Of a DNA stretch of 64,000 bases, positions 4,567 to 58,050 are shown piece after piece (within the stretch, counting starts at the first letter, position 1; every line of letters begins with the position of its first letter). The notes under the pieces were generated by a model. It was not told the DNA's origin. It searched no databases and saw only the letters and a program-made list of their open reading frames with translations. The stretch is from a virus: the IMG/VR virus record IMGVR_UViG_3300035670_010029; one strand, 5' to 3'. The position numbers and the translations under genes were made by a program.

Positions 4567-4571
4567 AATAT

Positions 4572-5443: not shown

Positions 5444-5445
5444 TA

Positions 5446-37915: not shown

Positions 37916-40900
37916 TTATTGTTTAGTTGGATCTGGAATACTACCTTCTGACTCCGCATTTAATCTACTGAATGCCGATTGTACTTCTCTTCTTATTAAA
38001 CCACTTAAAGGACCGTCCAATAATTCTTGCAGCGCTTGTGCTCCATTAACAACCACTTCTACCTTATGATTACCATTAACATTAATTTCTGGTGGTAAGT
38101 TTAGCTTGCTTAACTGAGTAATAAATTGATCAAATTTAGCTGTAAACTGGCCAAGACCATCTAATCCTCCAACACCATTTGCTTGTACTCCATTATTTAC
38201 ACCGCCACCAGCCACGATCTGTTGCATAATAGCGCCAAACTGAGTCATAACCTGATTAACGCCTGTTAATAGGGTTCCAAAAATTGTTAATTGTTTATTG
38301 ACATTTCCAGCATTGCTAGGATCAAATGCTGCTTGTGCTGCCTGTGATACTCTCTGCTGTGTCTGAGGAGATATTTGTGGCATAGCCGCTTGTGCCGGAG
38401 CTTGTCTTTGAGCTGCCACAGGAGCCGCACCAGCAACCAATTGTCTCATAGCTACTTGAGGAGAAATGCCTTGTTCACGAGATATCTCTAGTGCTTTACC
38501 TCTTTGATTTGCTATTTCGCGTGCTTTGGCCTGAGGAGATTTTGCTAATCGCTCTTTTAATACTTCAGAGCCTCTTTCTTCGGAACGCGAACGTATTGCG
38601 TCTTGTCTGGCTTGTTCAGCTTGTCTTTTTGCTGTCGCTGCTGCTATCCTCTCTGCTTTTATTTTCTCTCTTTCTGCTTTAAGTCTTTCGACTTTTTCTT
38701 CTTTGGTTTCTTTTGTGCCTTCAGACAAATACGAGACAGCACCACCTTTGTTATAGGCCCCACTATTAATCTTGTGTAACAGAGGAAGGTGTGACTGGGT
38801 AGCTTGTCGATTAACAACAAATTCACCAGGAGTAAGCATTGCGGGGATGGTGTCTGTACCTCTTGGTTGATACGGTACCAACATACCTTCGGATGCATAA
38901 ACTGTATCGGGTATGTCTCCTAATACTTGATCTGGTTTAGGTTTGGGCTTAGCTTTATTCTTTTTATCAAAACTGGCCAACCACTTACTACGCATGGAGT
39001 CATTCTTAGTGTTGTAGTAATTATACTCTCCAAGTTTACGTTGATAATAATTATATGCGCTCTTAAATTGCGACTCGATACCTTTTGCAGCAAAAATAGC
39101 TCGTGTACTTCTATCTCCTTCTTCTATGGTTCTGAGAGGACTGCCATCTCGATTAACAATTGATGGCAAACCACTAGCATCATTAAAAGTGTCATTTGTC
39201 GTAGTTTCAGGTATTGTTGCTGGGCTAGACGATTCAGAACCAGGCCAGGGCATACCTCCTTGGTCGGAATCTACTCCTAAATATTGACGAGGTTTTCCTC
39301 CTTCGCTTAAATAATTAACCAATCCACCAAACGACTTATAACTACCTCTACCTAATCCAGCATTATTTCTTGCATTTTGAGCTAGTTTCTTTTGTTCTAG
39401 TGTTTGAGCATTTAATAGCAATTTTTTGTTTTTTTCAACACTGCCAGCAACAATAGAGCCTCCATCTCTTTCATCAAATGCAGTAAATCGTCCGCTTTCA
39501 TTTTTTTCTACGAATTTATTGTCTTGGAAAGATAATGATTTTTCTTTGACATACAAAGCAGGAGTTTTGAACAGGTTTTTGATTGGTGGTTGTGGTGCGG
39601 ATCCGTTCTTTATTAAATTGTTTAACCATTCTTTATATGTAAGCTCATCATAATAGTTTGGTAATTCACCATCAGCAATCGGAAGCTCTTCTGGATTCAT
39701 TACGGGAGGAGCGCCCATTGCTATTTTTTGCATAGCAGCATCATTATTTGCTTGTTCTGGCTTGTTTATTATTGGATTATCTGGACTTGGAGGATTAATA
39801 TTGTCTGGTGTCTTCGATACTGGTTTGGTATTTTGATTAGCTAATTGAGTAGCGGCATATATTCCTCCCAAGGCTAAAGCTCCAACAATATATTTTTTTC
39901 TACCTCCTAATATATTTTTTGTTTTATTTCTAGTCCAATCGAACCAAGACCTATCCTCAAACTTTATACTAGGATCATCTATACCTTTGCTTAAGGCTCG
40001 TCTACCCTCTTTGGATAGCCCTTGTTCCGCATCTGCTAACGCTTTTGTTCTAGTTTGCTGCCAAACGGTGTCAGATTCCATATCTTTGGATATAATACCT
40101 TCAATAACGTCGTCATTGCGAGACACTTTCAAAGGAGGGCCTAAATCTACAGACCATCCTTGTTTCATAGCCTTGTCTGTAAACTCTTCTATGCCTGAGT
40201 CCTTATAAAGAATAGCTTTAAGAGCATCGCTATCAGACACACCACTACTAATAGCATCTTGATAAGCTTTTTGTGTAGCCGTATTGTTGCGAATAAAATT
40301 ATCAATAGAGTCAATTCCAAATTCTAGTTCTTTTTCAACATTATCTATATAAGCATTGATCCTATTTGACTGAGCATCTTGTACCATAGCCTTAAACTGA
40401 TTTAACCTGTCTTCTACTAATAATCTCTGTGCTTTAGGTAGTTTAATAATATCACTATTATCAGATGCTTTAGTGGCCAGAGAAGCAGAATCGGTTACAT
40501 CATCAGCTTTATTGGGAACGGAGACGGTTTGTGTGGCAGTTTTTGTCCCAGCATTTCTGTTTGGTCTTAATTGTTTAATAGCGTCACCAAAAGATGGAGC
40601 ATCTTCTAGAATTTTAGCTGTTTGAGGATTAACAGCAGCTTCAGCAAAAATATCCAAATTATCTATAACAAAACCGAGTTTATTCGCGCCCTCTCCCAAA
40701 TTATTTAACCAACTTTTGAATGTTGGCATAGCTTCGCCAGCAGCAATAATAGTCTTAGCTATACTCGGGGTAATATTTGTCCCCAAAGAAGATATTCCTT
40801 TAACAACATTACCGATCAATGGCAGTTTTTGTGCGCCGCTAACCATTGATCCAACATCAGATAATCTATCTACAACGCTTAATGCTTGTGCTCCTTTACC

Positions 40901-43900
40901 AGCTAGACTTGTTCCTGTGCTAAAACCCATACTAGACAAGGCTTGCGCTGCTTGAGAAGCAACAAAACCTACTGTTTGAGCACCTTCGGTAATAGCAGCA
41001 GCGCTTTCTCCCATGCCCTGTCTTACAGACTCTACTCTAGCCGCATCCCCTACCTGAAGAGCGGTTTGTTCACCTGTCTGAATTGGTCCACTTCCAGCTA
41101 AGGCTTGACCTAACTCTACTGTACTATAAGCTCCTTGTACTAATGCTTGTTCGCCAACCTGAGCAAATGCTTGTCCTGCAGCTTGTCCTGATTCGCTACC
41201 AAGCAAATACGACCCTCCCTGTACAGCGCGACCAGCCACAGAGATACCAGCACCAGCTACCACATTAGCAGCCCCGTAAGCTGCTCTACCAGTAGCCTCT
41301 CCCACTCCTCCTAGCCATCCTAGTCCTGCTATTAGCGGATTTTTACTTTGTATCCATAATTTATTTTGTGCCGTTCCGCCATCTGCTAAGTAATTAACAA
41401 TACCGCCAGAAGACAAAGTGTTACTATTAATAGCTTTTAATAAAGGTAGATTTTTTTGAGTTGCTGATCTATTGACTACAAATTCTCCTGGCGTTAACAT
41501 AGCAGGAACAGTATCTGTCCCTCGTGGTTGAAAATTAACTAAGTTTGCTCCATTCTGAGCATATATTATTCCACCCATAGCCCTATTAACTGGTTCGGCC
41601 ACTGCTCCTCTACTGGCAAACCATGATAAGCTAGGTAGCGCACCGAATGCATTAGCAAAACCAAAAAACATATGTGCTTGCATAGCATCGTCATAATATT
41701 TTTGTCCATCATTAGCAAAAGACGCCGCAAAATTACTCATTCTGGCAGCGTTATCCGGTTGCGCCATAGCATCAAAGAAATAATCTTGACCCACCCAATT
41801 ACCTTTGCCTCCATACCAATTCATGAGTCTATATAATCCTTCTCTGATGAAACCTAATGTTATTTGATCAAAATATGGCATACCATTAGGACCACGTAAA
41901 TTAAACAAATCATCTCCAAATTTTTGTATTAATCCTGATCTAACTTTTGTTCCATTAAATTCATTATATGGATTAAATAATACCTTTACTAAATCATTAA
42001 CCGTAGCATTTTCTGGAATGGCACCCGCTAGGTTTGTTGGTGTTAGTGTGCCATCTCTACCAACTACTTTAATTTGGGTTCCTTGCAATTGGTTGCCTAA
42101 TATATTTTTCCAATCAGGACTTAATTGTAAACCAGCTACTTTGCCGGCTCTTGCTGACATGCCAAAACTACGAAAGACTCCAGCAATCGGCGCTTTAGCA
42201 TCATAGAATTGTTTTAATAAAGCGGTGTCTCCTCCAGCAATAGCACCAAAAGCGTTAGCAGCACCGCTGATCATAGTCATAATATTATCTAGAGCATTAT
42301 ATGATTGGATACTATTTGCTCTGTTTTGCAATTGAGAAACATACGTTCCGGCTTGATTCAAAATAGAGGACATATATTGAGAGGCTCCTTTAGGATTACC
42401 TCCTAAAGCTAACCTAATAGCCTGCGGAGCGCCAGCATTAGACAACCATCCAGCAGAGACACCGGGAAGTCTTAATCCTCCAAATAAAGCCATAGAACCC
42501 CTAATTAGAGCTGCTGTAGCCTGTGGCAGATCCGCATCGGTTAATACAGAACCTTTGGTTATTTTAGACTGATCCACCTTACCAGCAGATAGTGACATTT
42601 CTTGTTGAAACTGTGCTAGCTTATCTAGTACAAACTCGCCTATATTCACAGATAATGGCTGCTGGCTTATATCGGTAAATACATCTGCACCTGATGAGAT
42701 ACTACCTAAATATTTAGTTAAAGACGTACCCTGACCAAACGTTAGATTAAGTTGTGATGCTACTTTAGCTGCTTGTTGTTCAGCGTTGGGGTCTTTATTA
42801 ACTCTCATCTTTATTAGGTCTTGGAAATCCTGAAGTAGTTTTGGATCATTAATACTAGAAGCATTAATAATATCATTAGGTCCATATTGTTTGGCAGTAA
42901 ACAGTCTTCTTTGGGACTTGTCTAGTGTGTTAAACAGCGTGCCCACTATGTTATTTGGTAATAGGGTGTCTATTGTTCTATTTGGATCAAATTTACCAGT
43001 AGTCGCATCATAAAATTGACCCGTATATTTCTCATATGCTATAGGAACATCTATGGAAGGATTTTTGCCATTAATGGGTATTGGTAATGTTAATTTAATG
43101 TTGTCAGATATTAGGCTGCTAGATACCACGCCCTTGGCATTCAGAGTATTTTTTTTCGCCTCGTCCATAAACGTTTGACCAAGATAATCTTCTATGTTGC
43201 CATTGATCATAACTGGAAATGACTTAGAAATACGATTTATTTCATCTGTTAATACGAATGGCTTACCTAAATTAAATTCTGGATCAAATTTTGCCGGTGG
43301 GGCTCCTACCAATCCAAACTTAACTCTATCTCTTCTTGCTCTTTCTATATTAGCTTGTACCGACTCTATAGCTGTTCTAAACGACGGTTCTAATGATGGT
43401 TGAGCCACAACAGCACTACTCGCGCCTTGAGTAATAAGCTCGTCTAGTGGAGACAATTCAGAGCCAGTTAAAGAAATATATTGTTGTGTATTATTAAATA
43501 ATGCAGATAGCTTGTCTCCTAGTGCTTGACCAGATCCGTCATCCACGTAACCCAACCTGCCTTGTAAAAATTCTAGTGTGTTTTTATATAGCTCATAGTT
43601 TGGTTTATGATTTTTTGTATTAGCTTCGTCTATTTTAAATCCTGGTAAAATATGCTGCTGTTTCGTCATTGGCTCACTTACAAAAGACGGGGTTTGTCCA
43701 TTGTGTGGTTCCCAGCTTTCCGAACTCCATTCTGTGTCAGCATATGGACTACCAGTAACAAAAGACGGTTTGTTAACGGACACCGCCATTGCCATTCCAG
43801 GAGCCCAGCCGGCCGGATTGTAAAATGCTCTTTTATAATACCAAACTTTAAAAGCTTGACTTTTTTGTATTTGATCGGAGCTGGCCCCTATATAGGGTTT

Positions 43901-46900
43901 ATCAAAAGACACCCCATAACTTTTATCTACTAATGTAGATTCCCACTTATTGGGAGTAGGATCTGGAAAATCTGCTGTGGTTGGTGGTTTATCTCTATAT
44001 AAAGATTTATCTAGTATGCTTTCTGGTTTTGGTCCGCCATCTATACCAAGTAGCATAGTTTTAACTTTGTCTTGATATTCTTTTTCTTGGGCTTGAAAAA
44101 TTTGTTTACCGGTAAACGCACCAAGCCCTAAATACAAACTATTGTTATCTTTAACTTTTGCTAAACCACCACGAATCCTAGACGAAGCTTGTGCTGCAGC
44201 GTCGTTCTTTGCGTAATCATACTGATCCCTGCCTTGCTTCACTATTGTTGGCGTTGCGCCAACTCTCACCGAACCCATTGACTTGTCTATAATATTATCA
44301 GCATTTAGATCAAAAGAGGATGTAGGCAGTGCATTAGAAGCACCAAAAGATAATGTGTAACTATTTGGCAGATCATATATATTACTAGAACCTTTTTGCC
44401 ATATTTCTGCTGCAGAGTCTGTTGGTTCAATAATTGGTTTTTCAGTCAACATGCCTTGTTGTTTGATATTGTCTGGCTTTCCCCAGTTTGTGATTAATCC
44501 TCCAGCGTTATAATATCCGACACGGCCACCCGATTGTAAGCTGTTATTATTAATTTGTTGTAGTAATGGCAGGTGTTTTTGTGTCGCTGATCGATTAATA
44601 ACAAACTCGCCAGGAGTTAACATCGCCGGTACGGTATCTGTTCCTCTGGGCTGAAAGTTAACCAACTGACCCTCCGCAGCATAAACTAAACCTCCAGTAG
44701 CTATGCCGGCAACTGGTGGTACCGCTCCAGCTCCTCCTACTGGTGGTTTTGGTTGTTGAGCAATAGATACGAGGGTATTGATGTTTCGTCCAATATCGGA
44801 TAGCTCTCTATTTTGAAATGTTAAAATAGTATTGGTCAAACCATCTATAATAGCTTTGCTGTTTTTGGACGCAATATCGTTTGCCAAATTCTGATCAAGC
44901 TGTCCTAGTAATCTAGTAGCCGCTGATTGTTCCGCTATGGCCTGATTATAATATTGTATAGCTGCGGCAGTCGCTGGATCTTGTTCGGGATTTCTTAACG
45001 AGTTTAAAATTTGTTGAAACATCGGAGAGACCCCCATCCCCGACTCTTGTAGCATAGTTTCTAATACGTTAGCTCTTGTATTGTTGGCTTGTTGATTATC
45101 TCCTAAAAATGGCAAAATATCCTGTAGTGCTCCTAATGTGTCTTTTCGCTCATTAGCAAAAGCTGTTTGTGCTGCTCTCATTGCTTCCATTGCAGAAGCA
45201 CCATTATTAATTGCATCTTGATAAGCTTTTTGGGCTCCAATACTATTTTGTATAGTATTTTGTTGTCCATTCATATTTCTTTGTAGTCTATACAAAGATT
45301 GGTTTAAAGACTCTAGTTCATCGGGAGTGCTAGTAACTACTTTCTCTAAGAAACTTATTCTGCCAGTTGCTTTTTGTTGAGCTTCTTGCATAGCATTCAT
45401 AGCAGCACTAGCTTTTTCAGTATTATTAGCCATCTCTTCTAAAGCTGCTCTGTTTTCTCTTAGAGAAATATTAGTGGCTTTAAGATCATTGTTAAATCTA
45501 ACAAAATCTTGAACACCAGCTGGGCCTTTCTCTGCCGACTGCTGAACAGACGACTGTTGAATTTCTCTGGTTCTATTGAGTTTAAGGACGGCATTGAAAA
45601 TATCCGCTGGATCCGTGATTCCTCCTGTTTGTCTACCAACAGAAGCATTTCTTTTAGCAAAAACATCTGCTACAGATATTGTTCGATTTAATGTTTTTGA
45701 TAACTCTAACTGAGAGTCGGCCGTAATGTCTATAGACTTTCTGGATCGTTCTCTAGCACTAATTTCTAAATCAATAATTTTATTCAAGTTATTAGCATAC
45801 TGATTAAGAATATTTTGATAATTTTGTAAGGCTTTGATAGCCACAGACTGAGCATCTTTAGCTGTCTCTATAACAGAATTTAATCCAGCCAATTTTTCTG
45901 ATAATTGAGCAAAATCCACTTTATCATCGCCGGATTTTCTCAGATCTACCAATGTACTACCGACTTCTTTAGCTAGTTTATCTGCTAATTCTGGAGGCAA
46001 GCCTAAACCCTTAAGCTCAGCTCTTATGTTTTTATCAACGGCCCTAGCAATAACTTCGTTGGAAGAATCTGGTCCTTGGTTTTTTAGTGTATCATTAATT
46101 GTAGACATAACTGTATTTTCTACAGTCTCGCCTAAATTCATTAGTTGTTGCATCTCTGGCTGTCTATTACCAAACAATGATCCGGCTGAGGATTGAGCTG
46201 CTGATACTCGTCCTGCTCCGTATGATCTTGGATTTTCAATAATATTCGCAGATGCTAGATCTATATTTCCTACTTTTGCCTGGCCCTGCAAAGCCGCTGT
46301 TGTTAGATCTATATTTTCTGACATAGACTTAAGAGAGAATGCTGTTGCATTAATGGCCTGTTCCATATTAGTAAACATTCTTTTTAAAGAACGCGTATAT
46401 ACAGAAACCATAGCTCCTAAGTTTTTCTGATCTTTTTCTCTCTGAGCAACAGCTGCTGCTTGCCTGGTCTTATTAGCTCCCTCTATAGTAATTATTTCTT
46501 CTATTAGCTCTTTTTTTCTCTTCTCAGTTAAACCAGTACTGAGTTCTATCTGTCTTATTTGCTTATTAAGAGCCGTGTCTGCATAAACCAAAGATCTGGC
46601 AAAATCATCAAATTCTGCACTGCCTAAAATATCTCCTACGTTTTCTCCAGATTTAATACGAGCTTGGATTAGCTGATTAATACCTTCTGCTATTGGTTGA
46701 AAAGATTGACTAGATTCTTGTGCTTGAGCACCGACCATTTTACCAGCTTTAGCCTCGTATGTGTCCGCTCCGCCAAACAATGTACGAAAATATTCTATTG
46801 TTCCTTCTTTTTCTAAAACCTGAGATCTTACTGCTGCTTGACGAGAAGCCCCATTGCCTTGTATCGAAGAAAATAGAACATCCAATCCATTAATCCAACC

Positions 46901-49900
46901 AGCACTAGCGGTATCTAGAGTTCGTGTTCTAAGATTATCTGCTGATCTAGAGGCATCAATTAAATTTGACTGTATTGACTGTCTTAGATTGACTTGTGTC
47001 AAGTCTTGATTCAGCTTATCGAATTTTTCTGATATACCATTTAAAGCTTGTTCTATTTTATTTTTGGATAATTCTATATAAAATTGTCTCACTCCGTTAT
47101 AAGCATCAAGAGCAACTTGCCCCAAAATAGCAACCACCTGCACTGCCTTAGCGCCTCTCAATAATCTGGATGCAAAGCCTGCAAATCTACTATTTGTGTT
47201 GCGTAGGTTTTGTGTGAAATTATCTAGTTCACCGATAGCTGCTTGGGTATATGAAAAAGCTTGCGAACCTCCTCTAATACCACCAGAGATACCTGCTTCA
47301 ATAGCACTAGATTTAGCATTAATAGAATCGGCGATAATATTTCCAACGGTGATGACACCAAAAGATAGGGCTAAACTAGCCTGTCTATCAAAATTTCTCT
47401 GCTCATCTGGACCTCTTTCTCCTCTAGAAGCAGCCGCTTGTTCTATAGCTGTTCTGCGAGCCCTAATTTCTTCGTTTATGGCTCTAACTTGCTCTTGTGC
47501 TTGGTCTTGTGTAATTCTTCCGGCTCTTAATTCGGCATCAATAGTAGCTCTGCGTGTCTGGATATATCTTTGGTCCATTTGCTCTAGTGTTCGCGCATCT
47601 CTAGTAAGATTTTGTAATACTCGTGCTAGGTCATCTCCGGTAGCATTTAACGTACTAAGATCTATAGAGGTTCCTAATCCACCTCCCGTGGCTATGTCTT
47701 CATATGCAGTACGACTTCGTACTGCGGCTCCTGCTCTTAATTCTGCTTGTACTTCTTCTTCTGTTCTGGGCGATCCGCTAGTTCCTGGAGTAGTACGTAA
47801 AACATTTTCTTCTGCTTGTCTAAGAGCTTCTATTCTACCTTCTACAGCATCTAATGCGTCTTGAATAGCTTGTCCAGTAATATTTCCTAATCTTTGTTGT
47901 ATATCTAATTCTGCTTGTGCTGCTCTATTAGCGTTATTTATGGCTTGTTGTAGGTCATACAATGTTTCCGCACTTGCTCCAGCCGCACGAGCCATGTTAA
48001 AATCAGCTTCTGCAGCTCTTCTAGCTTCGGCAGCAGTGGCCTGATAGCTTCGATTTAATAATCTGGCAGATTCTGATCCACTGACACCTAGTTGTGTTAA
48101 TACGTCTGCTAGTTGAGTTAATGCTGTGGTAGCTAAAGTAGTAGCTCCTATAGTGTCTGCATTAATAACTTCTGGTCTAGCTGATGGCCCTCTGGATCTA
48201 CCGCCCAAAAAGAATCTTTCTACTCCAACAGCTCCGCCCCTATTTAAACCCAAAGCTTTTGTCGCTTTTTCTCTTATTACAAAACTACCAACTGGCAAAT
48301 TAGCTGGTATACTATCACTGGTACCTGTACCCGGACCCTTAAATACGCTAATACCGCCATCAGCAAATCGCCCCATACCATTACGATCAGCCTGATTCAT
48401 TTTATTTAATTTGCCATAACCAATTCTTTTAGCAAGCTTGGGTGGTACATAAGCTTCACCATTGCTTACTAGAGCCGGAACCGTGCCTCCGTCTGCTAAT
48501 CCTATAGCTTGTTCTTTGTAGTATCTATCAAATTCTCCACGGGCTTTTTCAAACGCACTCCCATTAAGTGTTCTTTTAATTTCTGTAGGAATATTATCTG
48601 GTAAGCCAAAGAATTGGGCAGCTCGTCCCAATCCTCCTGGAAAATCTATAGCCCTATTAGACTCTAAAGTTTCTATAGGAGGAAGATTAGCTCCTAAAAT
48701 AGCTAAAGCTTTTTCAATAACGGCACCCTCAATATTTCCTTGTCCCATCAGCTCATCTAATTCTGGTTTGGCTTGCGGCTCAGTATATAAGAAGCCAGAC
48801 TTTTTGCTTTTTTGAACAGCTCGTATATTATCTAAGCTATCATCAATTAATTTTTCTGTTTGTGCTAAATTTTGTGCTTTAGCTCTTGGTACTTTAACGC
48901 CTTCTCCTCCAACACCAGTAATGTCCGAGGCTTGGTAAGGTAATCCAAAGCTTTGTAAAGATTGAGCTAATAAGTCTACAGTACTAGCGGGTCTAGCGGT
49001 AAGTATTCGTGTGTTTTTAATAAACTCTGGATCAGCATCTATTAATGTTTTAAGTTTAGCACCCAAACGTGTAAGTCTACCCCCTTTTAGATATTCTTCA
49101 ACAACGGTTCTGTCTGAATATCTGGGAATGTCTGGCTTTCCTTCTTCGTTAAGAATATCGGTACCAGAAACTAAAGTTTCATCAAAATCAAAAACTAATT
49201 TTTCTTTACCTCCAAAAATTTTGGTATATTGTACATTTTCTGCAAAGTTTCTAGCAGCTAGTGCTGTTTCTCTGCTCATTTGTTGTGCGGCTGGTAGGTA
49301 TTCTTTGTCAAAACCTTTTATAGTGGCATAGATAGTTTTACTACTTTCTGGCAGGACCCATTCGTTGGTGTCACTGTAACCCATTGGCAATAAGCCGGCT
49401 ATTGCTACTTGTGTTAGACTAGCTATTCTTTTAGCTTCAGCCGCATCACTCTTGCCCGATACGAATAATGCTCTATTGACATAGTCTTTAGCTATTTCTA
49501 TCCCTTTATTTGCTTTAATATTATTAGCATTTAAAACAGATCGTGTTCGACTATCTCCGGCACCAATACCTAATATGGTTCGAACTCCGGCAGGTCCACC
49601 CAAACCCCTTAGTTGTTCTAGCAATGTTTCTTGAATACTTTGACCTTTGGTTTGAGCCAAAGCAGACACCCTGTCTCTGATTCTTGGTGCCTCTTTAACA
49701 GCTCCTGCTTCCGCAAATTTTTGAATCATACCGCCTAAAGAAAATCTTGGTTTGCCCTTTCGTTTTTTAATATCTTTTGCCCATTCGTACATCGAACCAA
49801 AACTATCGCCTTCTATGTCCTCAACAGCATCTTCGCTTAGATACTTGTCCATGTATGCTTTAGTCAATACCATACCATCAATAACCGTAGGCTTACCATC

Positions 49901-52900
49901 TTTGGTATAGCCCATGTTCGAACCACCAGCGTCGATCCAATGTAATCCTCGTTCAGCTAATTTACCCTGCAATAGCTCTGCATCTTTCATGCCTTTTTCT
50001 GTATCAGAGATTCTTACTTTGTCTTGTATTGCGGCTGTTAATTTACCAAAAGTCTTAACTTTTCTATATCCAGAAACATGCTCCATCCCTTCGGGAAGCT
50101 GATAATTACCAATCTCTTTAATTTGTTTTTTACGGAAGCCTACATCCTCAGCTATTTGCTGTATTCCAAATCCCGTGCGAGAAATTTTTAACACTTCGTT
50201 ACCTATATCAAAAGACACATTTTCTCCACCGGCTCCCAGTACTTTTGCTGACGAAACACCATATTCATTTTCTATTTGGGAAAGATACTTAGGTAATCCT
50301 TTAACGGCTAAAATTTCTGGCGTCACTTCTCCAAAAAAAGTTTTATTCGTAGTAGAATATGTCTGTAATGCTGCTAATAATTTAGAGACTGAAGAAACCT
50401 TGTCTGTGGATTTTTTAGCTTTTCCACCCACTTTATATTCCTGTCTTTTTATACCAGTACTACCCAATAATTCACTAAGCGTACTGTCTAAAACACTTTG
50501 TAGTTTACTATCAAGAACAGGAGCTTTTTGCACTAAAGTTGTTAAAAACTCTTCTTTTCCATTATCTTCTGTTCTGGTTATATGAGCTTGTTCGAAACCA
50601 GCCGATAATAATGTTTGATTCACACCGGGATTGATCGGTCTGTATTCTCTGGCTTTTTTAGCATCATCAGAAGCCTTGATATATGAAGCTAGTTCTTTTT
50701 CCATTTCTGGATTGCGCTTTTCTGGATTATCTCTTAGTCTAATGTTTTGTAGCTGAGCACTTTCCAAAAGACTTTGTTTATATTTGCGTCCATACACCAC
50801 GTCTGCACTAGTATATCCTCCGCCATTACCAGAAGATAAAGCATCAAAAGCATCTGCCAAACCATCATTGTCCGTATTGAATAGAAAATCAACTCTTTCC
50901 CTATATTTGGAAAAACTTTCTGCTGAACGAGCCCTTAAACCACTAAACAATTGGTGTGTTAATTCGTGATACAATACGTCTTGTCCTGGTTTATCAAAAG
51001 CTGTACCTAACGATATACTGCCTCGTCCGGTAGCTGACATTGTTTGCTTCTTAGACTCAACTGCGGCTTCTATTGCTCTGCGTTCTTTTCCTTTGATATC
51101 CGAAATTTTCTTTTGTAAAGTTTTTATTTCATCAAAAACGCTGACAAAAGCTTCTCTGTCGTATGAAAAAGACCCATCATCAAAAGTTTCAATAGGGGTT
51201 TTTAGAATTTTATTTTGTAATTTCTTTTTTTCTTCTACCAACTTCTCATAACCAAATAAGTCTTGTTTATCTTTGTCTGTGTATCCAAAAACGCTTAGGT
51301 CCCAACCTTCAGAGCCACGACTACCTAACGGAGAATCATTAAATAGTCCTCCTCCTATCACTTTTCTACCTATACTACCAGCGTTACCAAAATCTATCTG
51401 TGCCGGCAATGCAACGCTCAAATCTTCTTGTGGCAAACCTATAAATTTGGCAAAATCGCCTATACTTTTTAATAAAGAATCTCGTTTAACCTTACCTTTA
51501 AAAGAAGCCAAAAACGCCGCACGATCAAAAGGCTCAGTCATTCTGGACCCAACAGCTTGGTCGTCTATAGATATGCGTTCATCTGTAGGGACATTACTTG
51601 CTAGTTGTTTCCATTCGGCTGCTTGTTGTTCTTTTATTATTTGTTTAGCATACGCATTGGTTATGCGGCGTGGAAATTTTGTTTCTCCTGTGCCGAAAGA
51701 TTCCTGTGTTTGTTTAACTCCACCAGGTGATCCTGTCATAAATTTTTGAATGAATCCACCAACAAATTTTTCGTTAACTACCTGTTGTTCTGGATTCTGT
51801 GTTCTTTTCTTTTGCAAGAAGTTGAGGACTTCGTCAAAAGACCCACTATAAATGACCTCAGATGCCCCTTTGTCTCCGTGCTCAAACACATCATACCATG
51901 TTCGTTTAGCATTAGCGCTGTCATAAAATGATTTGTTTTCAGCCCATGTATATTGTGATTTGCCGCCTTCAGCAAAAGCTTTAATTTGACCACCTTTGAT
52001 AAAACCTGGTGTTTTCTGTTGTTGTTGCTTATTAATAAAATCATAAAACTGTTTTTTGGTATCGCCAGCCCAGTAATAGTCCAGGGTTCCTATATTAACG
52101 TCGTCGATTTTAGGCGCAGGAAGGTTTTCTTTAAAATATCTATTAACGCTTTTTTTCTCTATACGATATCTTAATAATTTGCTAATCAAATCAGCATCAT
52201 CTGTTTTTGTAGTTCTAAATTTGACTTCACCTATTCTGCTTATAGCATTGTTCTTAAGTCGTTTAAGTATATCAACAGGATAGTTGGTTTTATCGCTGGC
52301 TTTCTCCCATTGGCCAGACAGTTTTTCTATGAGCAATTGTTCATATGCTAAACCCCAACGACCTTCTGCACTTTGTAAACGACTAATAGAATCTGATGTT
52401 TGTTGTCCATAAGATTGTTTAATTTGTTTTTGTTCTGATCGATTTTTACCAGATAGCTCTCTCAATATATCTCGGTTCTTTTGACTAATATCTATACCGG
52501 CATAGCTCTTATAGTGTCCTGAACCTTGTGCTGCTTGATTTTCTGCTGTATTCCATATTTTTAGAAAATCTTGATCCTCTAATTTAACTGTTTTCGGTTT
52601 TATTTTGATAGAGACTTTATCGTCTGCTTCTAAATTGGTTGAACCTATGGCTTTAGCAATAGCTGCTGCGCCTGATCTGTTTAATAGATCGGAGACTAAT
52701 ACAGGTCCTCCGTCAGCATATCTGTTCATCCTAACCAAATTTCCCCTACCATACTTATTAACAGCTCGTTTATTGACGACAAATTCTCCAGGAGTCAACA
52801 TAGCTGGTACACTGTCTGCGTTACCAGATCCTGGTACTATTCCTCCTCTGGCAAATCCGTATATACGACCTCCGTCTTGTGCTCTTCTAGTTCCTCTAAA

Positions 52901-54427
52901 ACCCCCACCAAAACCACCAGCAAATTGTGTTAAAGCACTAACCCCCCTAAAAGCTGCCATAATACCGATTAAAGGTAAAACACCTTTGGTAGCATCAGCA
53001 ATTTTGATTAGAGCGCTTGCAAGATCAAGACCCAATCTAACCATTGTTTTAAAGCCATCACTATCACCTACGCTTCTCACTAAAGCTGTAAATTCTTCTC
53101 TAACTTTTTGTATTTGAACAGCTAACGCTAGTTGACCTTTGGCCGCGTCTGTAGCTAATGATCCTTGTCCTTGTTGAGCTACCTTAAGAGCATCTTGAGC
53201 AGTGGCGAATTGTTGGATAAGAGGAAGTACTTTACCAATCTGACGGAAACCACCAAGCTCTTCAACTATTTGAGAGAACTTTAAGTCTCTAGGATCCAAT
53301 CTGCCTAATCCTTCGGCCAATCTTTGAACAGCAACATAAGGCCCAACGAATTTACCCTCTAGATCAGTTAATTGAACACCATACTCTTTAAGAGCTTCTA
53401 TAGTGTCGCCTCTTTGTATTCTGGTAAATATTGTTCTCAAACCAGTAGCAATAGTTTCTGCACTTTCGCGAGTAGTAGCTCTAATACTAGTAAACACAGC
53501 CAAAAATTCGTTTAAGGCATCGGTGCCTGAACTAACTCCTCTACTAGCAGAAGCAAACACGCCACCAGTACGCTGTATAGCAGCAATAAGGTCGCTAGCT
53601 TCTACTGCAAACCCAGCCGCTACAGCATTGATACTACCTAAAGCCCCTTCTAGTTGATTGGCACTAATACCAAACTGTCTCATCAAAGCAATAGAACCTT
53701 CTACTGTTTGATTAAGATTATCAAAAGATGGAGCTAATGCACTTTTAGCTAAGGCTTCTAGTGCTTTTCTGGTATCTCCCGCAGTAAAACCTGCCTGAGC
53801 TAGCGTTACCGATACTTGAGCCAAATCTTCTGACGCAACACCCATAGATGTAGATAATCTGGTAATCTCAGATGTCATACTACTCAAACTGGCTTTGCTT
53901 TCATTTGTTACCTGACTCAAACGAGTAATCTGACGATCAAATTCTATATATTGTTTTATACCGGCACTTAACGCATTACTAAATCCGTATATAACAGATG
54001 TCACAGCACTAAAGGCCGCAAATCTTCTTACGGCTAACCCAGCTTGTCTTCCGAAGTCTTCAAACTCGGTACGCGTTCTTGATACGGCCGCACTAGCGTT
54101 ATTAGCACTAGAAGCCAACCTTACCATGGGAGCTTGTACTGTTTGCGGTAAATTAACATTACCAACCGATCTCATCGCAGCTGCCAAATTAGTAAAAGCT
54201 TGCGCTGCGGAGGTTGTTGACGATGTGGTTGCAGCTAGCGTGGTATTAAGAGTCCCAAGACTAGTATTAACTTGTCTGATTGATCCTAAAGTTGTTCTAT
54301 TTATATTCAGATTAACATTAGCATTAATAGAACCAAGTTGTCTACGAATATTATTTACTATGGGACGAATATTGGTCGGCCCCCTAAGATTAATTTCTGC
54401 GGTTAAGCTGAATCCTCTTGCTGCCAT
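37916..54427 (-). CDS. giant tape measure protein (5503 aa) with embedded enzymatic domains
   Basis: N-terminal TP901-type TMP core (FDRQITRLSQVT...LAQAG...GTGLRTI-like ATGLRTIFTRI); long Ala/Gln helical regions; six PAMLTPGEFV-type modules; located after tube and chaperone genes; AGGAG SD. Confidence 0.92.
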   Translation of the reverse strand: MAARGFSLTAEINLRGPTNIRPIVNNIRRQLGSINANVNLNINRTTLGSIRQVNTSLGTLNTTLAATTSSTTSAAQAFTNLAAAMRSVGNVNLPQTVQAPMVRLASSANNASAAVSRTRTEFEDFGRQAGLAVRRFAAFSAVTSVIYGFSNALSAGIKQYIEFDRQITRLSQVTNESKASLSSMTSEITRLSTSMGVASEDLAQVSVTLAQAGFTAGDTRKALEALAKSALAPSFDNLNQTVEGSIALMRQFGISANQLEGALGSINAVAAGFAVEASDLIAAIQRTGGVFASASRGVSSGTDALNEFLAVFTSIRATTRESAETIATGLRTIFTRIQRGDTIEALKEYGVQLTDLEGKFVGPYVAVQRLAEGLGRLDPRDLKFSQIVEELGGFRQIGKVLPLIQQFATAQDALKVAQQGQGSLATDAAKGQLALAVQIQKVREEFTALVRSVGDSDGFKTMVRLGLDLASALIKIADATKGVLPLIGIMAAFRGVSALTQFAGGFGGGFRGTRRAQDGGRIYGFARGGIVPGSGNADSVPAMLTPGEFVVNKRAVNKYGRGNLVRMNRYADGGPVLVSDLLNRSGAAAIAKAIGSTNLEADDKVSIKIKPKTVKLEDQDFLKIWNTAENQAAQGSGHYKSYAGIDISQKNRDILRELSGKNRSEQKQIKQSYGQQTSDSISRLQSAEGRWGLAYEQLLIEKLSGQWEKASDKTNYPVDILKRLKNNAISRIGEVKFRTTKTDDADLISKLLRYRIEKKSVNRYFKENLPAPKIDDVNIGTLDYYWAGDTKKQFYDFINKQQQQKTPGFIKGGQIKAFAEGGKSQYTWAENKSFYDSANAKRTWYDVFEHGDKGASEVIYSGSFDEVLNFLQKKRTQNPEQQVVNEKFVGGFIQKFMTGSPGGVKQTQESFGTGETKFPRRITNAYAKQIIKEQQAAEWKQLASNVPTDERISIDDQAVGSRMTEPFDRAAFLASFKGKVKRDSLLKSIGDFAKFIGLPQEDLSVALPAQIDFGNAGSIGRKVIGGGLFNDSPLGSRGSEGWDLSVFGYTDKDKQDLFGYEKLVEEKKKLQNKILKTPIETFDDGSFSYDREAFVSVFDEIKTLQKKISDIKGKERRAIEAAVESKKQTMSATGRGSISLGTAFDKPGQDVLYHELTHQLFSGLRARSAESFSKYRERVDFLFNTDNDGLADAFDALSSGNGGGYTSADVVYGRKYKQSLLESAQLQNIRLRDNPEKRNPEMEKELASYIKASDDAKKAREYRPINPGVNQTLLSAGFEQAHITRTEDNGKEEFLTTLVQKAPVLDSKLQSVLDSTLSELLGSTGIKRQEYKVGGKAKKSTDKVSSVSKLLAALQTYSTTNKTFFGEVTPEILAVKGLPKYLSQIENEYGVSSAKVLGAGGENVSFDIGNEVLKISRTGFGIQQIAEDVGFRKKQIKEIGNYQLPEGMEHVSGYRKVKTFGKLTAAIQDKVRISDTEKGMKDAELLQGKLAERGLHWIDAGGSNMGYTKDGKPTVIDGMVLTKAYMDKYLSEDAVEDIEGDSFGSMYEWAKDIKKRKGKPRFSLGGMIQKFAEAGAVKEAPRIRDRVSALAQTKGQSIQETLLEQLRGLGGPAGVRTILGIGAGDSRTRSVLNANNIKANKGIEIAKDYVNRALFVSGKSDAAEAKRIASLTQVAIAGLLPMGYSDTNEWVLPESSKTIYATIKGFDKEYLPAAQQMSRETALAARNFAENVQYTKIFGGKEKLVFDFDETLVSGTDILNEEGKPDIPRYSDRTVVEEYLKGGRLTRLGAKLKTLIDADPEFIKNTRILTARPASTVDLLAQSLQSFGLPYQASDITGVGGEGVKVPRAKAQNLAQTEKLIDDSLDNIRAVQKSKKSGFLYTEPQAKPELDELMGQGNIEGAVIEKALAILGANLPPIETLESNRAIDFPGGLGRAAQFFGLPDNIPTEIKRTLNGSAFEKARGEFDRYYKEQAIGLADGGTVPALVSNGEAYVPPKLAKRIGYGKLNKMNQADRNGMGRFADGGISVFKGPGTGTSDSIPANLPVGSFVIREKATKALGLNRGGAVGVERFFLGGRSRGPSARPEVINADTIGATTLATTALTQLADVLTQLGVSGSESARLLNRSYQATAAEARRAAEADFNMARAAGASAETLYDLQQAINNANRAAQAELDIQQRLGNITGQAIQDALDAVEGRIEALRQAEENVLRTTPGTSGSPRTEEEVQAELRAGAAVRSRTAYEDIATGGGLGTSIDLSTLNATGDDLARVLQNLTRDARTLEQMDQRYIQTRRATIDAELRAGRITQDQAQEQVRAINEEIRARRTAIEQAAASRGERGPDEQRNFDRQASLALSFGVITVGNIIADSINAKSSAIEAGISGGIRGGSQAFSYTQAAIGELDNFTQNLRNTNSRFAGFASRLLRGAKAVQVVAILGQVALDAYNGVRQFYIELSKNKIEQALNGISEKFDKLNQDLTQVNLRQSIQSNLIDASRSADNLRTRTLDTASAGWINGLDVLFSSIQGNGASRQAAVRSQVLEKEGTIEYFRTLFGGADTYEAKAGKMVGAQAQESSQSFQPIAEGINQLIQARIKSGENVGDILGSAEFDDFARSLVYADTALNKQIRQIELSTGLTEKRKKELIEEIITIEGANKTRQAAAVAQREKDQKNLGAMVSVYTRSLKRMFTNMEQAINATAFSLKSMSENIDLTTAALQGQAKVGNIDLASANIIENPRSYGAGRVSAAQSSAGSLFGNRQPEMQQLMNLGETVENTVMSTINDTLKNQGPDSSNEVIARAVDKNIRAELKGLGLPPELADKLAKEVGSTLVDLRKSGDDKVDFAQLSEKLAGLNSVIETAKDAQSVAIKALQNYQNILNQYANNLNKIIDLEISARERSRKSIDITADSQLELSKTLNRTISVADVFAKRNASVGRQTGGITDPADIFNAVLKLNRTREIQQSSVQQSAEKGPAGVQDFVRFNNDLKATNISLRENRAALEEMANNTEKASAAMNAMQEAQQKATGRISFLEKVVTSTPDELESLNQSLYRLQRNMNGQQNTIQNSIGAQKAYQDAINNGASAMEAMRAAQTAFANERKDTLGALQDILPFLGDNQQANNTRANVLETMLQESGMGVSPMFQQILNSLRNPEQDPATAAAIQYYNQAIAEQSAATRLLGQLDQNLANDIASKNSKAIIDGLTNTILTFQNRELSDIGRNINTLVSIAQQPKPPVGGAGAVPPVAGIATGGLVYAAEGQLVNFQPRGTDTVPAMLTPGEFVINRSATQKHLPLLQQINNNSLQSGGRVGYYNAGGLITNWGKPDNIKQQGMLTEKPIIEPTDSAAEIWQKGSSNIYDLPNSYTLSFGASNALPTSSFDLNADNIIDKSMGSVRVGATPTIVKQGRDQYDYAKNDAAAQASSRIRGGLAKVKDNNSLYLGLGAFTGKQIFQAQEKEYQDKVKTMLLGIDGGPKPESILDKSLYRDKPPTTADFPDPTPNKWESTLVDKSYGVSFDKPYIGASSDQIQKSQAFKVWYYKRAFYNPAGWAPGMAMAVSVNKPSFVTGSPYADTEWSSESWEPHNGQTPSFVSEPMTKQQHILPGFKIDEANTKNHKPNYELYKNTLEFLQGRLGYVDDGSGQALGDKLSALFNNTQQYISLTGSELSPLDELITQGASSAVVAQPSLEPSFRTAIESVQANIERARRDRVKFGLVGAPPAKFDPEFNLGKPFVLTDEINRISKSFPVMINGNIEDYLGQTFMDEAKKNTLNAKGVVSSSLISDNIKLTLPIPINGKNPSIDVPIAYEKYTGQFYDATTGKFDPNRTIDTLLPNNIVGTLFNTLDKSQRRLFTAKQYGPNDIINASSINDPKLLQDFQDLIKMRVNKDPNAEQQAAKVASQLNLTFGQGTSLTKYLGSISSGADVFTDISQQPLSVNIGEFVLDKLAQFQQEMSLSAGKVDQSKITKGSVLTDADLPQATAALIRGSMALFGGLRLPGVSAGWLSNAGAPQAIRLALGGNPKGASQYMSSILNQAGTYVSQLQNRANSIQSYNALDNIMTMISGAANAFGAIAGGDTALLKQFYDAKAPIAGVFRSFGMSARAGKVAGLQLSPDWKNILGNQLQGTQIKVVGRDGTLTPTNLAGAIPENATVNDLVKVLFNPYNEFNGTKVRSGLIQKFGDDLFNLRGPNGMPYFDQITLGFIREGLYRLMNWYGGKGNWVGQDYFFDAMAQPDNAARMSNFAASFANDGQKYYDDAMQAHMFFGFANAFGALPSLSWFASRGAVAEPVNRAMGGIIYAQNGANLVNFQPRGTDTVPAMLTPGEFVVNRSATQKNLPLLKAINSNTLSSGGIVNYLADGGTAQNKLWIQSKNPLIAGLGWLGGVGEATGRAAYGAANVVAGAGISVAGRAVQGGSYLLGSESGQAAGQAFAQVGEQALVQGAYSTVELGQALAGSGPIQTGEQTALQVGDAARVESVRQGMGESAAAITEGAQTVGFVASQAAQALSSMGFSTGTSLAGKGAQALSVVDRLSDVGSMVSGAQKLPLIGNVVKGISSLGTNITPSIAKTIIAAGEAMPTFKSWLNNLGEGANKLGFVIDNLDIFAEAAVNPQTAKILEDAPSFGDAIKQLRPNRNAGTKTATQTVSVPNKADDVTDSASLATKASDNSDIIKLPKAQRLLVEDRLNQFKAMVQDAQSNRINAYIDNVEKELEFGIDSIDNFIRNNTATQKAYQDAISSGVSDSDALKAILYKDSGIEEFTDKAMKQGWSVDLGPPLKVSRNDDVIEGIISKDMESDTVWQQTRTKALADAEQGLSKEGRRALSKGIDDPSIKFEDRSWFDWTRNKTKNILGGRKKYIVGALALGGIYAATQLANQNTKPVSKTPDNINPPSPDNPIINKPEQANNDAAMQKIAMGAPPVMNPEELPIADGELPNYYDELTYKEWLNNLIKNGSAPQPPIKNLFKTPALYVKEKSLSFQDNKFVEKNESGRFTAFDERDGGSIVAGSVEKNKKLLLNAQTLEQKKLAQNARNNAGLGRGSYKSFGGLVNYLSEGGKPRQYLGVDSDQGGMPWPGSESSSPATIPETTTNDTFNDASGLPSIVNRDGSPLRTIEEGDRSTRAIFAAKGIESQFKSAYNYYQRKLGEYNYYNTKNDSMRSKWLASFDKKNKAKPKPKPDQVLGDIPDTVYASEGMLVPYQPRGTDTIPAMLTPGEFVVNRQATQSHLPLLHKINSGAYNKGGAVSYLSEGTKETKEEKVERLKAEREKIKAERIAAATAKRQAEQARQDAIRSRSEERGSEVLKERLAKSPQAKAREIANQRGKALEISREQGISPQVAMRQLVAGAAPVAAQRQAPAQAAMPQISPQTQQRVSQAAQAAFDPSNAGNVNKQLTIFGTLLTGVNQVMTQFGAIMQQIVAGGGVNNGVQANGVGGLDGLGQFTAKFDQFITQLSKLNLPPEINVNGNHKVEVVVNGAQALQELLDGPLSGLIRREVQSAFSRLNAESEGSIPDPTKQ
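38718..52885 (-). repeat. six dispersed GG..(GTD)xxPAMLTPGEFV modules in the TMP
   Basis: Copies at about 52750-52885, 48441-48502 (PALVSNGEAY), 48263-48370 (GTSDSIPANLPVGSFV), 44549-44707, 41375-41585 and 38718-38902. The last three share QPRGTDTxPAMLTPGEFVxNRxATQxxLPLLxxIN. Confidence 0.9.
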
Positions 54428-54513: not shown

Positions 54514-55398
54514 TTATGTAGTGCTGGTTGTTGCTTCGGTAGCAGCTGTAGCTTCATTGGTAACTGGTGCTTCATTAGTGGTCTCAACTGTTTTTGCTTC
54601 CTCTTCTAAAACTACTGGCCGACCATGATCATCTAAGAACGGCTGTGTCTCAACGAGATATTCTCCATCCTCGTCAACCCTATTACCGTCTTTATCAACA
54701 TACTCACCTGCCTCATTAATATACCTACCGTCTTTATCTACTAATCTGCCTTCACTATCAATTGTTCTGCCCTGTTTGTCAATAAATCTTAAATCATCAT
54801 TAACAAACTTATATTTTTTCAAGAACTTATTTTCTGGTAAATTTTTCTCAAAATTATTATCCAAGCCATAAATCATATTTGCTAACTTTTGCGCACCAGC
54901 CAAGGCTACAGGATCATCAATGCGATTCATATAGTCTTCAAGGTTAGCAAAATACGCTTTATCGCTATCTTTATACACCACACATACCGATACCAAATAA
55001 TTAAACCTAGCATTATCAGCTTGGCCTTCAGCGCTATGATTGTCTAAAGATGTCCTAACACTAATTAGCTCTCGTATTTTATTTCGTACATCTCGCATCT
55101 TTATGGCCAGTTTTTTAGCTTCTGATAAAGCAAAACCACCCTTAGCTAAACGTCGCTCTCCGTCTAAAAGTTCTTGTTGCAGAGTGGTGTATTCGGCCTG
55201 TTTTCCTGCGTTCCATAATCCTTGATCTTCTAATAGATCGTCCATTTTGGCTCGTACCACACTTTTGCTTTTTATAGCATCAGTGAAAGCCTGATTATAA
55301 ACTTTCTGAGCTTCTCTTTGATCGTGTAATGTTGGGGTTCTAACCATAAAAGTTTTTTCTTCCCCGTTGATTGTAACCTTAAAGTCCTGAGTTTTCAT
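54514..55398 (-). CDS. putative tail assembly chaperone with C-terminal 7-aa D-x-x-G repeats
   Basis: Immediately upstream of the TMP; helical; IDKQGRT-IDSEGRL-VDKDGRY-INEAGEY-VDKDGNR-VDEDGEY. Confidence 0.6.
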   Translation of the reverse strand: MKTQDFKVTINGEEKTFMVRTPTLHDQREAQKVYNQAFTDAIKSKSVVRAKMDDLLEDQGLWNAGKQAEYTTLQQELLDGERRLAKGGFALSEAKKLAIKMRDVRNKIRELISVRTSLDNHSAEGQADNARFNYLVSVCVVYKDSDKAYFANLEDYMNRIDDPVALAGAQKLANMIYGLDNNFEKNLPENKFLKKYKFVNDDLRFIDKQGRTIDSEGRLVDKDGRYINEAGEYVDKDGNRVDEDGEYLVETQPFLDDHGRPVVLEEEAKTVETTNEAPVTNEATAATEATTSTT

Positions 55399-55451
55399 AG
55401 TATAAAACCTTTCTGATTTTCTTGGTAATGTAAATAGTGAAAATAATAATA

Positions 55452-55760
55452 TTATTTATTGTTTGATCCACGAGGTTTGCCAAAATTATAACTGTAAGAT
55501 TTGTGACAACCAGGACCCCACTTATCAAAATCTTCCTTGAGCTGTCTAATCTGAGTATTACCCTGATTAAGAATTTGATTACGTGTAAAATCCCATATAT
55601 TAGCAAATTTTTCTTCTTCTGCAGTCAAGGGTATACTTTCGTCTTTGTCTAGACCCCAAAGAAAACCAAGATTGTCCTCTACTCTAGCTAATGCCCCTAT
55701 CATAGTTGTTTGTATTCTTTTTTCTACAAAATATCGTAGTCTGTCCAGATTTTCTTGCAT
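55452..55760 (-). CDS. hypothetical helical protein (tail assembly region)
   Basis: 102-aa ORF with AGGAAGG upstream, between the tube and TMP genes. Confidence 0.6.
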   Translation of the reverse strand: MQENLDRLRYFVEKRIQTTMIGALARVEDNLGFLWGLDKDESIPLTAEEEKFANIWDFTRNQILNQGNTQIRQLKEDFDKWGPGCHKSYSYNFGKPRGSNNK

Positions 55761-55782
55761 AATAAATGATCCTTCCTATTAA

Positions 55783-56823
55783 TTATTTTTTATTTAGTTC
55801 CATTAATCTTTGTTTGATTTCTCTCTGTACGTCCGGTAACTCGTGCTCTTTTAATGCTCTATCGCTATTAAAAACAGCCTGAGTCTTTTCTTGAATGCGC
55901 TGAGTACTTTCCGCAGAATTAAGAGACAAAATGTGTTCTTTTTGCTCTTGGTCCTTCGCCAACAAAAATATTTCGCGTGAATTTTTTACTTTATCACTCA
56001 ATATATTATCTACACCCTTTTGTTGTTTTTGCTTTTTATTTTCTTCCTGCTGTTGAAGCATCCAACCATCTAGCGCATCATCATCTTCTATAATATCGGA
56101 ATCGGGACAATCCGGATGTTCATATATTCGATCATACATAATACTGGTATTAAGTAGTGCTCTTTGTTCTTCTGAAAGTTCTATAGCAGAACACCCGAAT
56201 ACATCTTGTTTATTTGTGTGATAATAATTTCTCCAATAATCACTACGAGCTATTTTTTTATATTGACTAATATCTATTACATTATCAGCTATAGTTTGCA
56301 TAAGACCATTAAAAAAATCATAATCAATATTTTTATGATCAGAAAAAACGATATTTTCTGTATCTCTATAAAATAAAGAATTCAATATAATGTATTGGTT
56401 TTTAATGTTTTCACAATAATTTTCTAAAGTCAAAAAATCTAAACTGTGCTGAGTCTGATAAGCGGAGGACAGCTGTGTTTTAACAGAAGCAACGGTTTGT
56501 TTAATTTTTTTTCGTTTAGTTAAATCCGTCCAATTTTTAAATAGATCTATTTTTGCGGTATTAAGTTTTTTTTCAGTGTTTTCAAGATCTTTTTTGAATA
56601 GGGGAGTTGTTATTCCGTATTCTATCAAAAGATTGGGTATATCTTCTTCAAAAAGAAAATTATTAAATAAATTATCTTCGTACGTTGTCCGATATATATC
56701 GTCAGCCATTCTTTTTAGCTTTAAAGATGGCTTGTGTAGATGATAATACGTATCTTTGTAAAAGAAAAACTGGTCCCCAGACATGATTCTGTGGACCAGA
56801 AATTCTATATCCTTATTATTCAC
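55783..56823 (-). CDS. putative tail assembly chaperone (paralog of 54514-55398)
   Basis: N-terminal half aligns by eye with 54514-55398; C-terminal YDRIYEHPDCP...IIEDDDALDGW. Confidence 0.55.
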   Translation of the reverse strand: MNNKDIEFLVHRIMSGDQFFFYKDTYYHLHKPSLKLKRMADDIYRTTYEDNLFNNFLFEEDIPNLLIEYGITTPLFKKDLENTEKKLNTAKIDLFKNWTDLTKRKKIKQTVASVKTQLSSAYQTQHSLDFLTLENYCENIKNQYIILNSLFYRDTENIVFSDHKNIDYDFFNGLMQTIADNVIDISQYKKIARSDYWRNYYHTNKQDVFGCSAIELSEEQRALLNTSIMYDRIYEHPDCPDSDIIEDDDALDGWMLQQQEENKKQKQQKGVDNILSDKVKNSREIFLLAKDQEQKEHILSLNSAESTQRIQEKTQAVFNSDRALKEHELPDVQREIKQRLMELNKK

Positions 56824-56824
56824 A

Positions 56825-56974: not shown

Positions 56975-57019
56975 TTTTGTCCTCCTGGAAAAATTCTTTA
57001 ATTACTAAAACGAATTAGC

Positions 57020-58027: not shown

Positions 58028-58050
58028 GTGTTAGGTCTCCAGATTAATGG

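Follow-up and report, generated by a model that had tools for sequence, protein, structure and literature searches.

Tape measure proteins set the length of phage tails and help to breach the cell envelope. Inside the siphovirus tail tube, the tape measure lies with its C-terminus at the tip, and it goes out ahead of the DNA. To our knowledge, the enzymatic inserts of tape measures attack the cell wall. Two described systems are among the closest to the one discussed here: the tape measure of mycobacteriophage TM4, which has a peptidoglycan-hydrolase motif (PMC1796659), and the modular effectors of the Sle1 type, related to tape measures, of contractile injection systems (PMC13277306). We describe a nuclease-like domain, residues 575-808 of a giant tape measure protein, encoded in a 64,000-nucleotide stretch of viral DNA (IMG/VR record IMGVR_UViG_3300035670_010029; the whole stretch is called the window below). 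As with TM4 and the Sle1-type effectors, a tape measure scaffold would here carry an exchangeable module whose effect on the target cell comes with ejection or later. The inserts known from those systems attack the cell wall or the membrane proteome, whereas the domain here is nuclease-like. A literature search of incomplete coverage found no description of a tape measure with a nuclease-fold insert, which is not proof of absence.

The polyvalent proteins of phages and conjugative elements are also very large and multidomain; the proposal is that they enter together with the DNA and are cut apart by metallopeptidases of their own (Iyer et al., 2017; PMC5512222). The main text of that paper does not contain the terms "tape measure," "REase" or "restriction endonuclease fold," and the carrier here is the tape measure itself. 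Restriction-endonuclease-fold domains form the toxin tips of polymorphic toxins, as in the Tox-REase families (PF15647, PF15649, PF15648, and PF15650) and the CdiA-CT EC869-like DNases. The idea of a small nuclease within a very long carrier or at its end, delivered to another cell, is common to these toxins and the present domain. Here, however, a phage tape measure takes the place of the secreted toxin as carrier, and there is no evident immunity gene. Two further nucleases invite comparison. The VRR-NUC domain (PF08774; the C-terminal nuclease of FAN1, and phage or bacterial VRR_NUC proteins such as PDB 4qbn and 4qbo) is half the size of the domain here, which needs a 100-residue N-terminal subdomain, and the VRR_NUC sequences that we collected have a G-P-G-D-x-L-x-x-x-Q signature after the ExK that is lacking here. 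Hjc (PDB 1gef), the archaeal Holliday junction resolvase and a minimal PD-(D/E)XK nuclease, gives a weak structural score and has no sequence similarity to the domain; it is a free dimeric enzyme, whereas the domain is an insert in a structural protein of 5,503 residues.

The original prediction, made from the sequence alone, placed a PD-(D/E)XK restriction-endonuclease-like domain between the strings YADGG and FIKGG. The strings that it named are all found in one minus-strand frame within a single ORF: RWGLAYEQLL at residue 690, NYPVDIL at 715, IGEVKFR at 732 and FIKGG at 809 (positions 51989-52003). The E...PxD...ExK arrangement is real, consisting of E696, P717-x-D719 and E734-x-K736; the codons of these five residues, and those of E688 and K750, were checked directly. 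The Lys-rich context that had been noted is equally plain, with 28 Lys, and 40 Lys plus Arg, among the 234 residues of the domain. The features and their coordinates are collected in Table 1. The consensus sequence of the homologues is likewise glycine-rich at the position of YADGG, and the downstream linker is kept across homologues with the consensus PGF-x-x-GG-x-x-QKF-x-x-GG.

Table 1. Coordinates of the nuclease-like domain, its parts and its carrier, and of a second nuclease gene in the window. Residues are numbered in the tape measure ORF; the ORF number equals the domain number (given in brackets) plus 574.
Feature	Position	Strand	Residues	Remarks
Tape measure protein ORF	37916..54427	-	5,503 aa	Single uninterrupted ORF; carries the nuclease-like domain
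Upstream glycine linker YADGG	52706..52720	-	570-574	N-terminal border of the domain
Whole domain	52004..52705	-	575-808 (234 aa)	Unit that folds with confidence in the AlphaFold2 model
N-terminal subdomain	52406..52705	-	575-674	Helices and one strand in the model; Lys/Gln-rich
PD-(D/E)XK-like core	52004..52405	-	675-808	DSSP of the model
Second Glu on predicted helix alpha1	52364..52366	-	E688 [E114]	Invariant; within an S-A-E-x-R-W-G motif
Acidic residue on predicted helix alpha1	52340..52342	-	E696 [E122]	Invariant; codon verified
"PD" of the motif	52271..52279	-	P717-V-D719 [P143, D145]	Directly before predicted beta2; P and D invariant
"(D/E)xK" of the motif	52220..52228	-	E734-V-K736 [E160, K162]	At the end of predicted beta3; E and K invariant
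Lys on predicted helix alpha2	52178..52180	-	K750 [K176]	Invariant; after the ExK strand
Downstream double-glycine linker FIKGGQIKAFAEGG	51962..52003	-	809-822	C-terminal border of the domain
PDDEXK_1 nuclease gene	1655-2698	+		Separate and readily recognised; Pfam E 3e-18; motif G-T-I-D ... E-I-I-D-Y-K

The N-terminus of the carrier ORF is, judged by its sequence, that of a true tail tape measure. Its residues 187-391 match PF10145 (PhageMin_Tail, the TP901-type core) with an E value of 2e-23, above the cut-off of the model, and the ORF matches the PHROG tape measure families phrog_28, 4211, 167, and 1533; both the core HMM match and the position among tail genes agree with tape measure membership. 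The plus-strand ORFs that overlap the domain region are short and nested inside the giant minus-strand frame, and were treated as spurious.

The evidence for a nuclease-like domain begins with conservation. Among 11 distinct sequences, whose pairwise identity goes down to 21%, 21 of the 234 positions are invariant. They include E688, W691, G692, E696, P717, D719, E734, K736, F737, K750, and a C-terminal aromatic cluster. The original prediction implied that its acidic and Lys residues should be conserved in homologues; E696, D719, E734 and K736, picked from one sequence, are indeed all invariant, which has a probability of ~1e-4 under random placement of the invariant positions. The sole indel between D719 and E734 is a 4-residue deletion in one homologue (P0007), and it falls in the turn of the predicted beta2-beta3 hairpin.

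The PD-(D/E)XK core has a mixed central sheet and an alpha-beta-beta-beta-alpha-beta order of elements. The same order is found in the AlphaFold2 model of the domain, obtained from an 8-row alignment of the whole 234 residues (best model pLDDT 85.2, pTM 0.79; the five models scored 85, 78, 77, 72, and 57), so that the structure prediction also came out as the original prediction had anticipated. In domain numbering, helices (H) and strands (E) of the C-terminal 135 residues are H101-128, E133-135, E146-149, E155-162, H170-183, E202-212, and H214-230; in ORF numbering these are alpha1 675-702, beta1 707-709, beta2 720-723, beta3 729-736, alpha2 744-757, beta4 776-786, and alpha3 788-804. The N-terminal subdomain contributes H13-22, E30-38, H44-60, H75-84, and H89-98 (domain numbering). 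In the model, the conserved residues take the places expected of a PD-(D/E)XK site: an acidic residue, E696, on alpha1; the Asp, D719, at the start of beta2; and the (D/E)xK residues, E734 and K736, on beta3.

Structure searches with the domain model point to the same superfamily, although no match reached significance and all scores were in the non-diagnostic range. Foldseek against the PDB gave AvaII as the best match (E 0.07), and its list continues with ACE1/Cas4, AdnAB, EcoRII, EcoO109I, VRR_NUC, BstEII, NucS, AddAB, Card1, and the Hachiman nuclease. In a fold search of 48,161 chains, PD-(D/E)XK nucleases made up 23 of the top 50 matches, with weak scores; by our estimate the superfamily is a small fraction of the chain library. 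Among the 23 are Hjc, HamA, the cap-snatching endonucleases of influenza virus (PA) and bunyaviruses, with up to 111-132 aligned residues, and eight type II restriction enzymes (MspI, PspGI, Bse634I, BsaWI, SgrAI, Cfr10I, Ecl18kI, and SwaI). A second-look structural alignment brought up the PD-(D/E)XK nuclease theme again, and so did a library of viral models, with VRR-NUC, Cas4, RecE-like and RecU-like proteins among the matches. The arrangement of residues first noticed is thus confirmed, and the interpretation placed on it is partly supported: the core topology in the model, the invariant residues and the dominance of PD-(D/E)XK nucleases among the listed matches speak for it, and what failed to appear is a profile match or a structural match of significance.

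On these grounds residues 575-808 probably have a PD-(D/E)XK fold, as modelled, and the domain is predicted, with moderate confidence, to be an active nuclease. To the metal-dependent phosphodiesterase site, alpha1 would contribute E696, the start of beta2 D719, and beta3 both E734 and K736, probably aided by E688 and K750. Since a tape measure has its C-terminus at the tail tip and goes out ahead of the DNA, its N-terminal third, which includes the domain, should be the last part to exit; the head-proximal domain would thus emerge late, shortly before the genome. Stored in an extended state, it would refold once outside, perhaps after release by cuts in the glycine linkers on either side, and would then cleave nucleic acid in the infected cell, where host DNA is the most likely target and RNA or branched DNA are possible ones. 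Delivery with action on host nucleic acid, as the original prediction proposed, is the more tentative part, to which we give rather less than an even chance. The explanation taken as a whole, namely a self-contained PD-(D/E)XK domain with an intact site that serves as a delivered effector cleaving nucleic acid, seems to us evenly poised between right and wrong. A bolder form, which we would advance only tentatively, is that of a "first-strike" phosphodiesterase that comes through the tail tube unfolded, ahead of the genome, refolds in the host and attacks host or defence-related nucleic acid while no phage gene is yet expressed; part of the same tentative proposal is that a clade of large phages with tape measures of 4,200-6,700 residues carries, in the head-proximal part of these proteins, a previously unrecognised nuclease family.

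Several results weigh against this explanation. The bare motif is no rarer than chance: shuffled versions of the 5,503-residue protein contain on average 1.4 matches to E..PxD..[DE]xK and 1.3 to PxD..[DE]xK, against 1-2 observed, and the real tape measure protein has one further PxD..[DE]xK match elsewhere. The weight of the observation therefore rests on the conservation and the fold that were found afterwards. Of these, the confident model depends on a shallow, 8-row alignment, and the core alone (residues 674-808) was modelled at a pLDDT of only 43; this low-confidence model still shows the helices and beta1-3, and beta4 is not recovered. Probably the N-terminal subdomain is integral to the fold and, probably too, the shallow alignment makes the prediction fragile. 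Searches of Pfam, PHROGs, NCBIfam, and the PDB (phmmer and profile) at E values up to 10 found no known nuclease family; the sole matches were at chance level (annexin, ODAD1, YheA, DUF7897, and a glucosaminidase model whose 14.7 bits compare with a cut-off of 1500). Profile comparison (hhalign) of the 11-sequence family alignment with VRR_NUC alignments, built from 47 bacterial sequences of FAN1, exonuclease-fused and phage types that were found with the Pfam model in 401 genomes, gave probabilities of 0.06-0.14%, and a separate profile comparison of the domain with the PDDEXK_1 protein of the phage itself gave 0.1%. The best local path against the FAN1-type set places YPVD..GEVKF on G[FM]PD..IEVKG, and the PDDEXK_1 comparison likewise picks out the Asp hairpin, neither being statistically meaningful. 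The HMMs of Tox-REase-3/5/7/9 had no match at E values up to 10 in the domain or in four homologues. The nearest named clusters by a protein-language-model comparison, an unrelated method, were Tox-REase-3, -7, -5, and -9 and CDI_toxin_EC869_like; they favour the nuclease reading, but their scores of 0.85-0.87 lie below the threshold of 0.9 and are leads only, not proof. The lumen of the tail tube should not have room for several copies of a folded domain of 234 residues, which leaves the storage and delivery of the domain unexplained; its size implies either that it is stored extended and refolds after exit, or that it is removed before assembly. The presence of the domain in the virion, its ejection and the release of the segment are inferred only.

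Many bona fide PD-(D/E)XK families likewise fail to show profile similarity with one another. The lack of a match therefore lowers the family assignment more than the fold assignment. Its modelled fold and its motif place the domain in the PD-(D/E)XK superfamily, as a new family by sequence that is assigned to no named one. What would be new here is a sequence family of that superfamily not seen by profile libraries, together with a new setting for a known fold.

The distribution of the family bears on what the domain is for. An exhaustive phmmer search of 1.84 billion representative proteins gave 7 hits. Apart from a 68-residue fragment and a 1,760-residue protein, probably truncated, these are tape measures 4,212-5,503 residues long in which the domain has a constant position. 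Two more tape measures, of 4,390 and 6,681 residues, came from a word-indexed search. Homology extends over the full length of the domain in 7 giant tape measures besides this one. The corresponding loci were located with a degenerate DNA pattern and by an alignment-guided scan; the phage contigs that carry them measure 27-230 kb, and those longer than 100 kb are of 108, 159, 192, and 230 kb. A single-sequence scan of viral contigs found no relatives, although the degenerate pattern did recover loci; megablast and tblastn found no match among GenBank phage records. No stand-alone relative came up in a profile search of proteins of 122-417 residues, and no relative in one genome from each of 185,579 prokaryote species. 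In these sequence searches, the family turned up nowhere but inside the tape measures of large uncultured phages.

Within the homologues, residues 1 to ~825 are colinear in all seven, comprising the tape measure core, a first V-P-A-x-L-T-P-G-E-F-V motif, the domain and the double-glycine linker. The domain is the one insert common to all the homologous tape measures, and later inserts differ or are absent. This constancy is compatible with another role, in which a domain of PD-(D/E)XK fold serves the DNA or tail of the phage itself by binding, holding or trimming the genome end, or by aiding tail assembly or completion. A part present and colinear in every homologue, among inserts that vary, suggests a core role over a swappable effector, and there may be an analogue in the restriction-endonuclease-fold head completion protein of T4-like phages, a virion-associated nuclease required for packaging (PMC7824862). 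The best structural matches, moreover, are structure-specific nucleases (FAN1, Hjc, and VRR_NUC). The rate of evolution argues otherwise. Identity to the homologues is 61-86% in the tape measure core and 36-66% in the domain core; in P0009 the two values are 86 and 36%, which would be unusual for a housekeeping part. The N-terminal subdomain is the fastest-diverging part, and in P0009 is no longer detectable by BLAST. Furthermore, the vast majority of tape measures do without such a domain, as the 7 cluster hits among the 1.84 billion representatives attest. We regard a role in the phage's own DNA or tail as unlikely. The constant position, rapid divergence and frozen active site would fit a functional enzyme under diversifying pressure; evolution faster than that of the carrier, with the active site kept, is the pattern expected in host-phage conflict.

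A second alternative is that the domain is no nuclease but a new alpha/beta domain, in which the E/D/E/K residues are kept for another hydrolysis, for binding of metal or ligand, or for salt bridges; the resemblance to the restriction endonuclease fold would then be that of a widespread three-layer architecture, which structure searches often match with weak scores. The non-diagnostic structural scores, the missing profile similarity to any PD-(D/E)XK family, the instability of the model once the N-terminal 100 residues are removed and the chance level of the motif are all in keeping with this view. They have to be set against the modelled location of the four residues on the canonical elements, in canonical order and spacing, against the concentration of 23 of the 50 top matches in one superfamily in an unbiased search, and against the language-model method, which is unrelated and points to restriction-endonuclease-fold toxins. 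We consider the non-nuclease alternative distinctly unlikely. It is very unlikely that the domain is a nuclease that is never delivered, the giant ORF being a polyprotein processed in the producing cell and the domain being excised before or during tail assembly to work in the cytoplasm late in infection (for example in host DNA breakdown or recombination): established tail dimensions, into which folded globular domains should not fit, and the conserved glycine doublets that bracket the domain would suit such a scheme, but the later insert regions are missing from most homologues that keep the domain, so that self-processing would not be general, a separate PDDEXK_1 nuclease is already encoded in the replication module, and cleavage of the giant ORF is only hypothetical.

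Further candidates were set aside. A helical filler of the tape measure was rejected, the model being alpha/beta and the family having sharply conserved polar residues. An assembly artefact or fusion was rejected since the same architecture occurs in independent metagenomes, and a captured free-living gene with known relatives was dropped after the phmmer, 122-417-residue and prokaryote searches had yielded no stand-alone relatives. Membership in VRR_NUC (PF08774) was likewise rejected: hmmscan gave no hit, none was found in four homologous phage records at an E value of 10, and the hhalign probability was ~0.1%.

Were the insert indeed a catalytically intact nuclease, it would extend the list of proteins that a siphovirus-type tail can deliver ahead of the DNA. 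How globular enzymes are stored in, and threaded through, a tail tube would then become a concrete question.

The rest of the tape measure is variable. Its lengths among homologues are 4,212-6,681 residues. The inserts after the domain are not conserved when P0002-P0009 are compared with residues 825-2000 (window ~48400-51950), and BLAST colinearity resumes at query residue ~1369 in P0003, ~1520-1541 in P0009 and P0005, and ~1884-1895 in P0004 and P0006. The sequence G-T-D-T-V-P-A-M-L-T-P-G-E-F-V-V-N, followed by L-P-L-L-x-x-I-N and glycine doublets, occurs in at least four copies along the minus-strand tape measure ORF; copies of this recurring LTPGEF-type motif lie near residues 545, 3265, 4305, and 5190 and match phrog_35029 and phrog_25241. 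Between the tape measure core and the domain, P0004 has ~130 extra residues (its residues 522-652) that resemble residues 1981-2075 of the window protein, a second copy of the region with the glycine and L-T-P-G-E-F-type motif. The P0004 insertion suggests, by its sequence, that linker motifs are duplicated and moved.

The PDDEXK_1 gene listed in Table 1 lies within a replication module, next to a Toprim primase fragment (1-1071) and a dNMP kinase (1068-1658). The gene for DNA polymerase III alpha (2695-7089, plus strand) is apparently split: the first part (2695-4566) encodes PHP and NTPase domains, the second (5446-7089) the finger, HhH, and OB domains, and the two are separated by a gene for an RNase_T/DnaQ-like exonuclease (4754-5443). 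Two adjacent glycosyltransferases of the GT1 family (7624-10424, plus strand; Glycos_transf_1, phrog_2170) adjoin the module. The original prediction connected them, through protection of the phage DNA, with the injected nuclease, and this connection is conjectural. The five ORFs after the glycosyltransferases have no family match. Between unannotated genes, a plus-strand ORF at 13665-14477 has matches to HNH/homing-endonuclease PHROGs (phrog_559, E 6e-11).

Directly downstream of the tape measure are five very large minus-strand ORFs (16999-37904) of 1,539, 520, 506, 1,733, and 2,653 residues, presumably encoding distal tail or baseplate and fibre proteins of an unusual tail; three of the five were searched against PHROG and had no match. 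Genes for the tail tube, chaperone and head-tail proteins are expected upstream of a tape measure. The six minus-strand ORFs found there (54514-60176) have no PHROG match, and three of them have no Pfam match either. The next ORF upstream (60208-62589) has matches to tail-fibre and virion-structural families.

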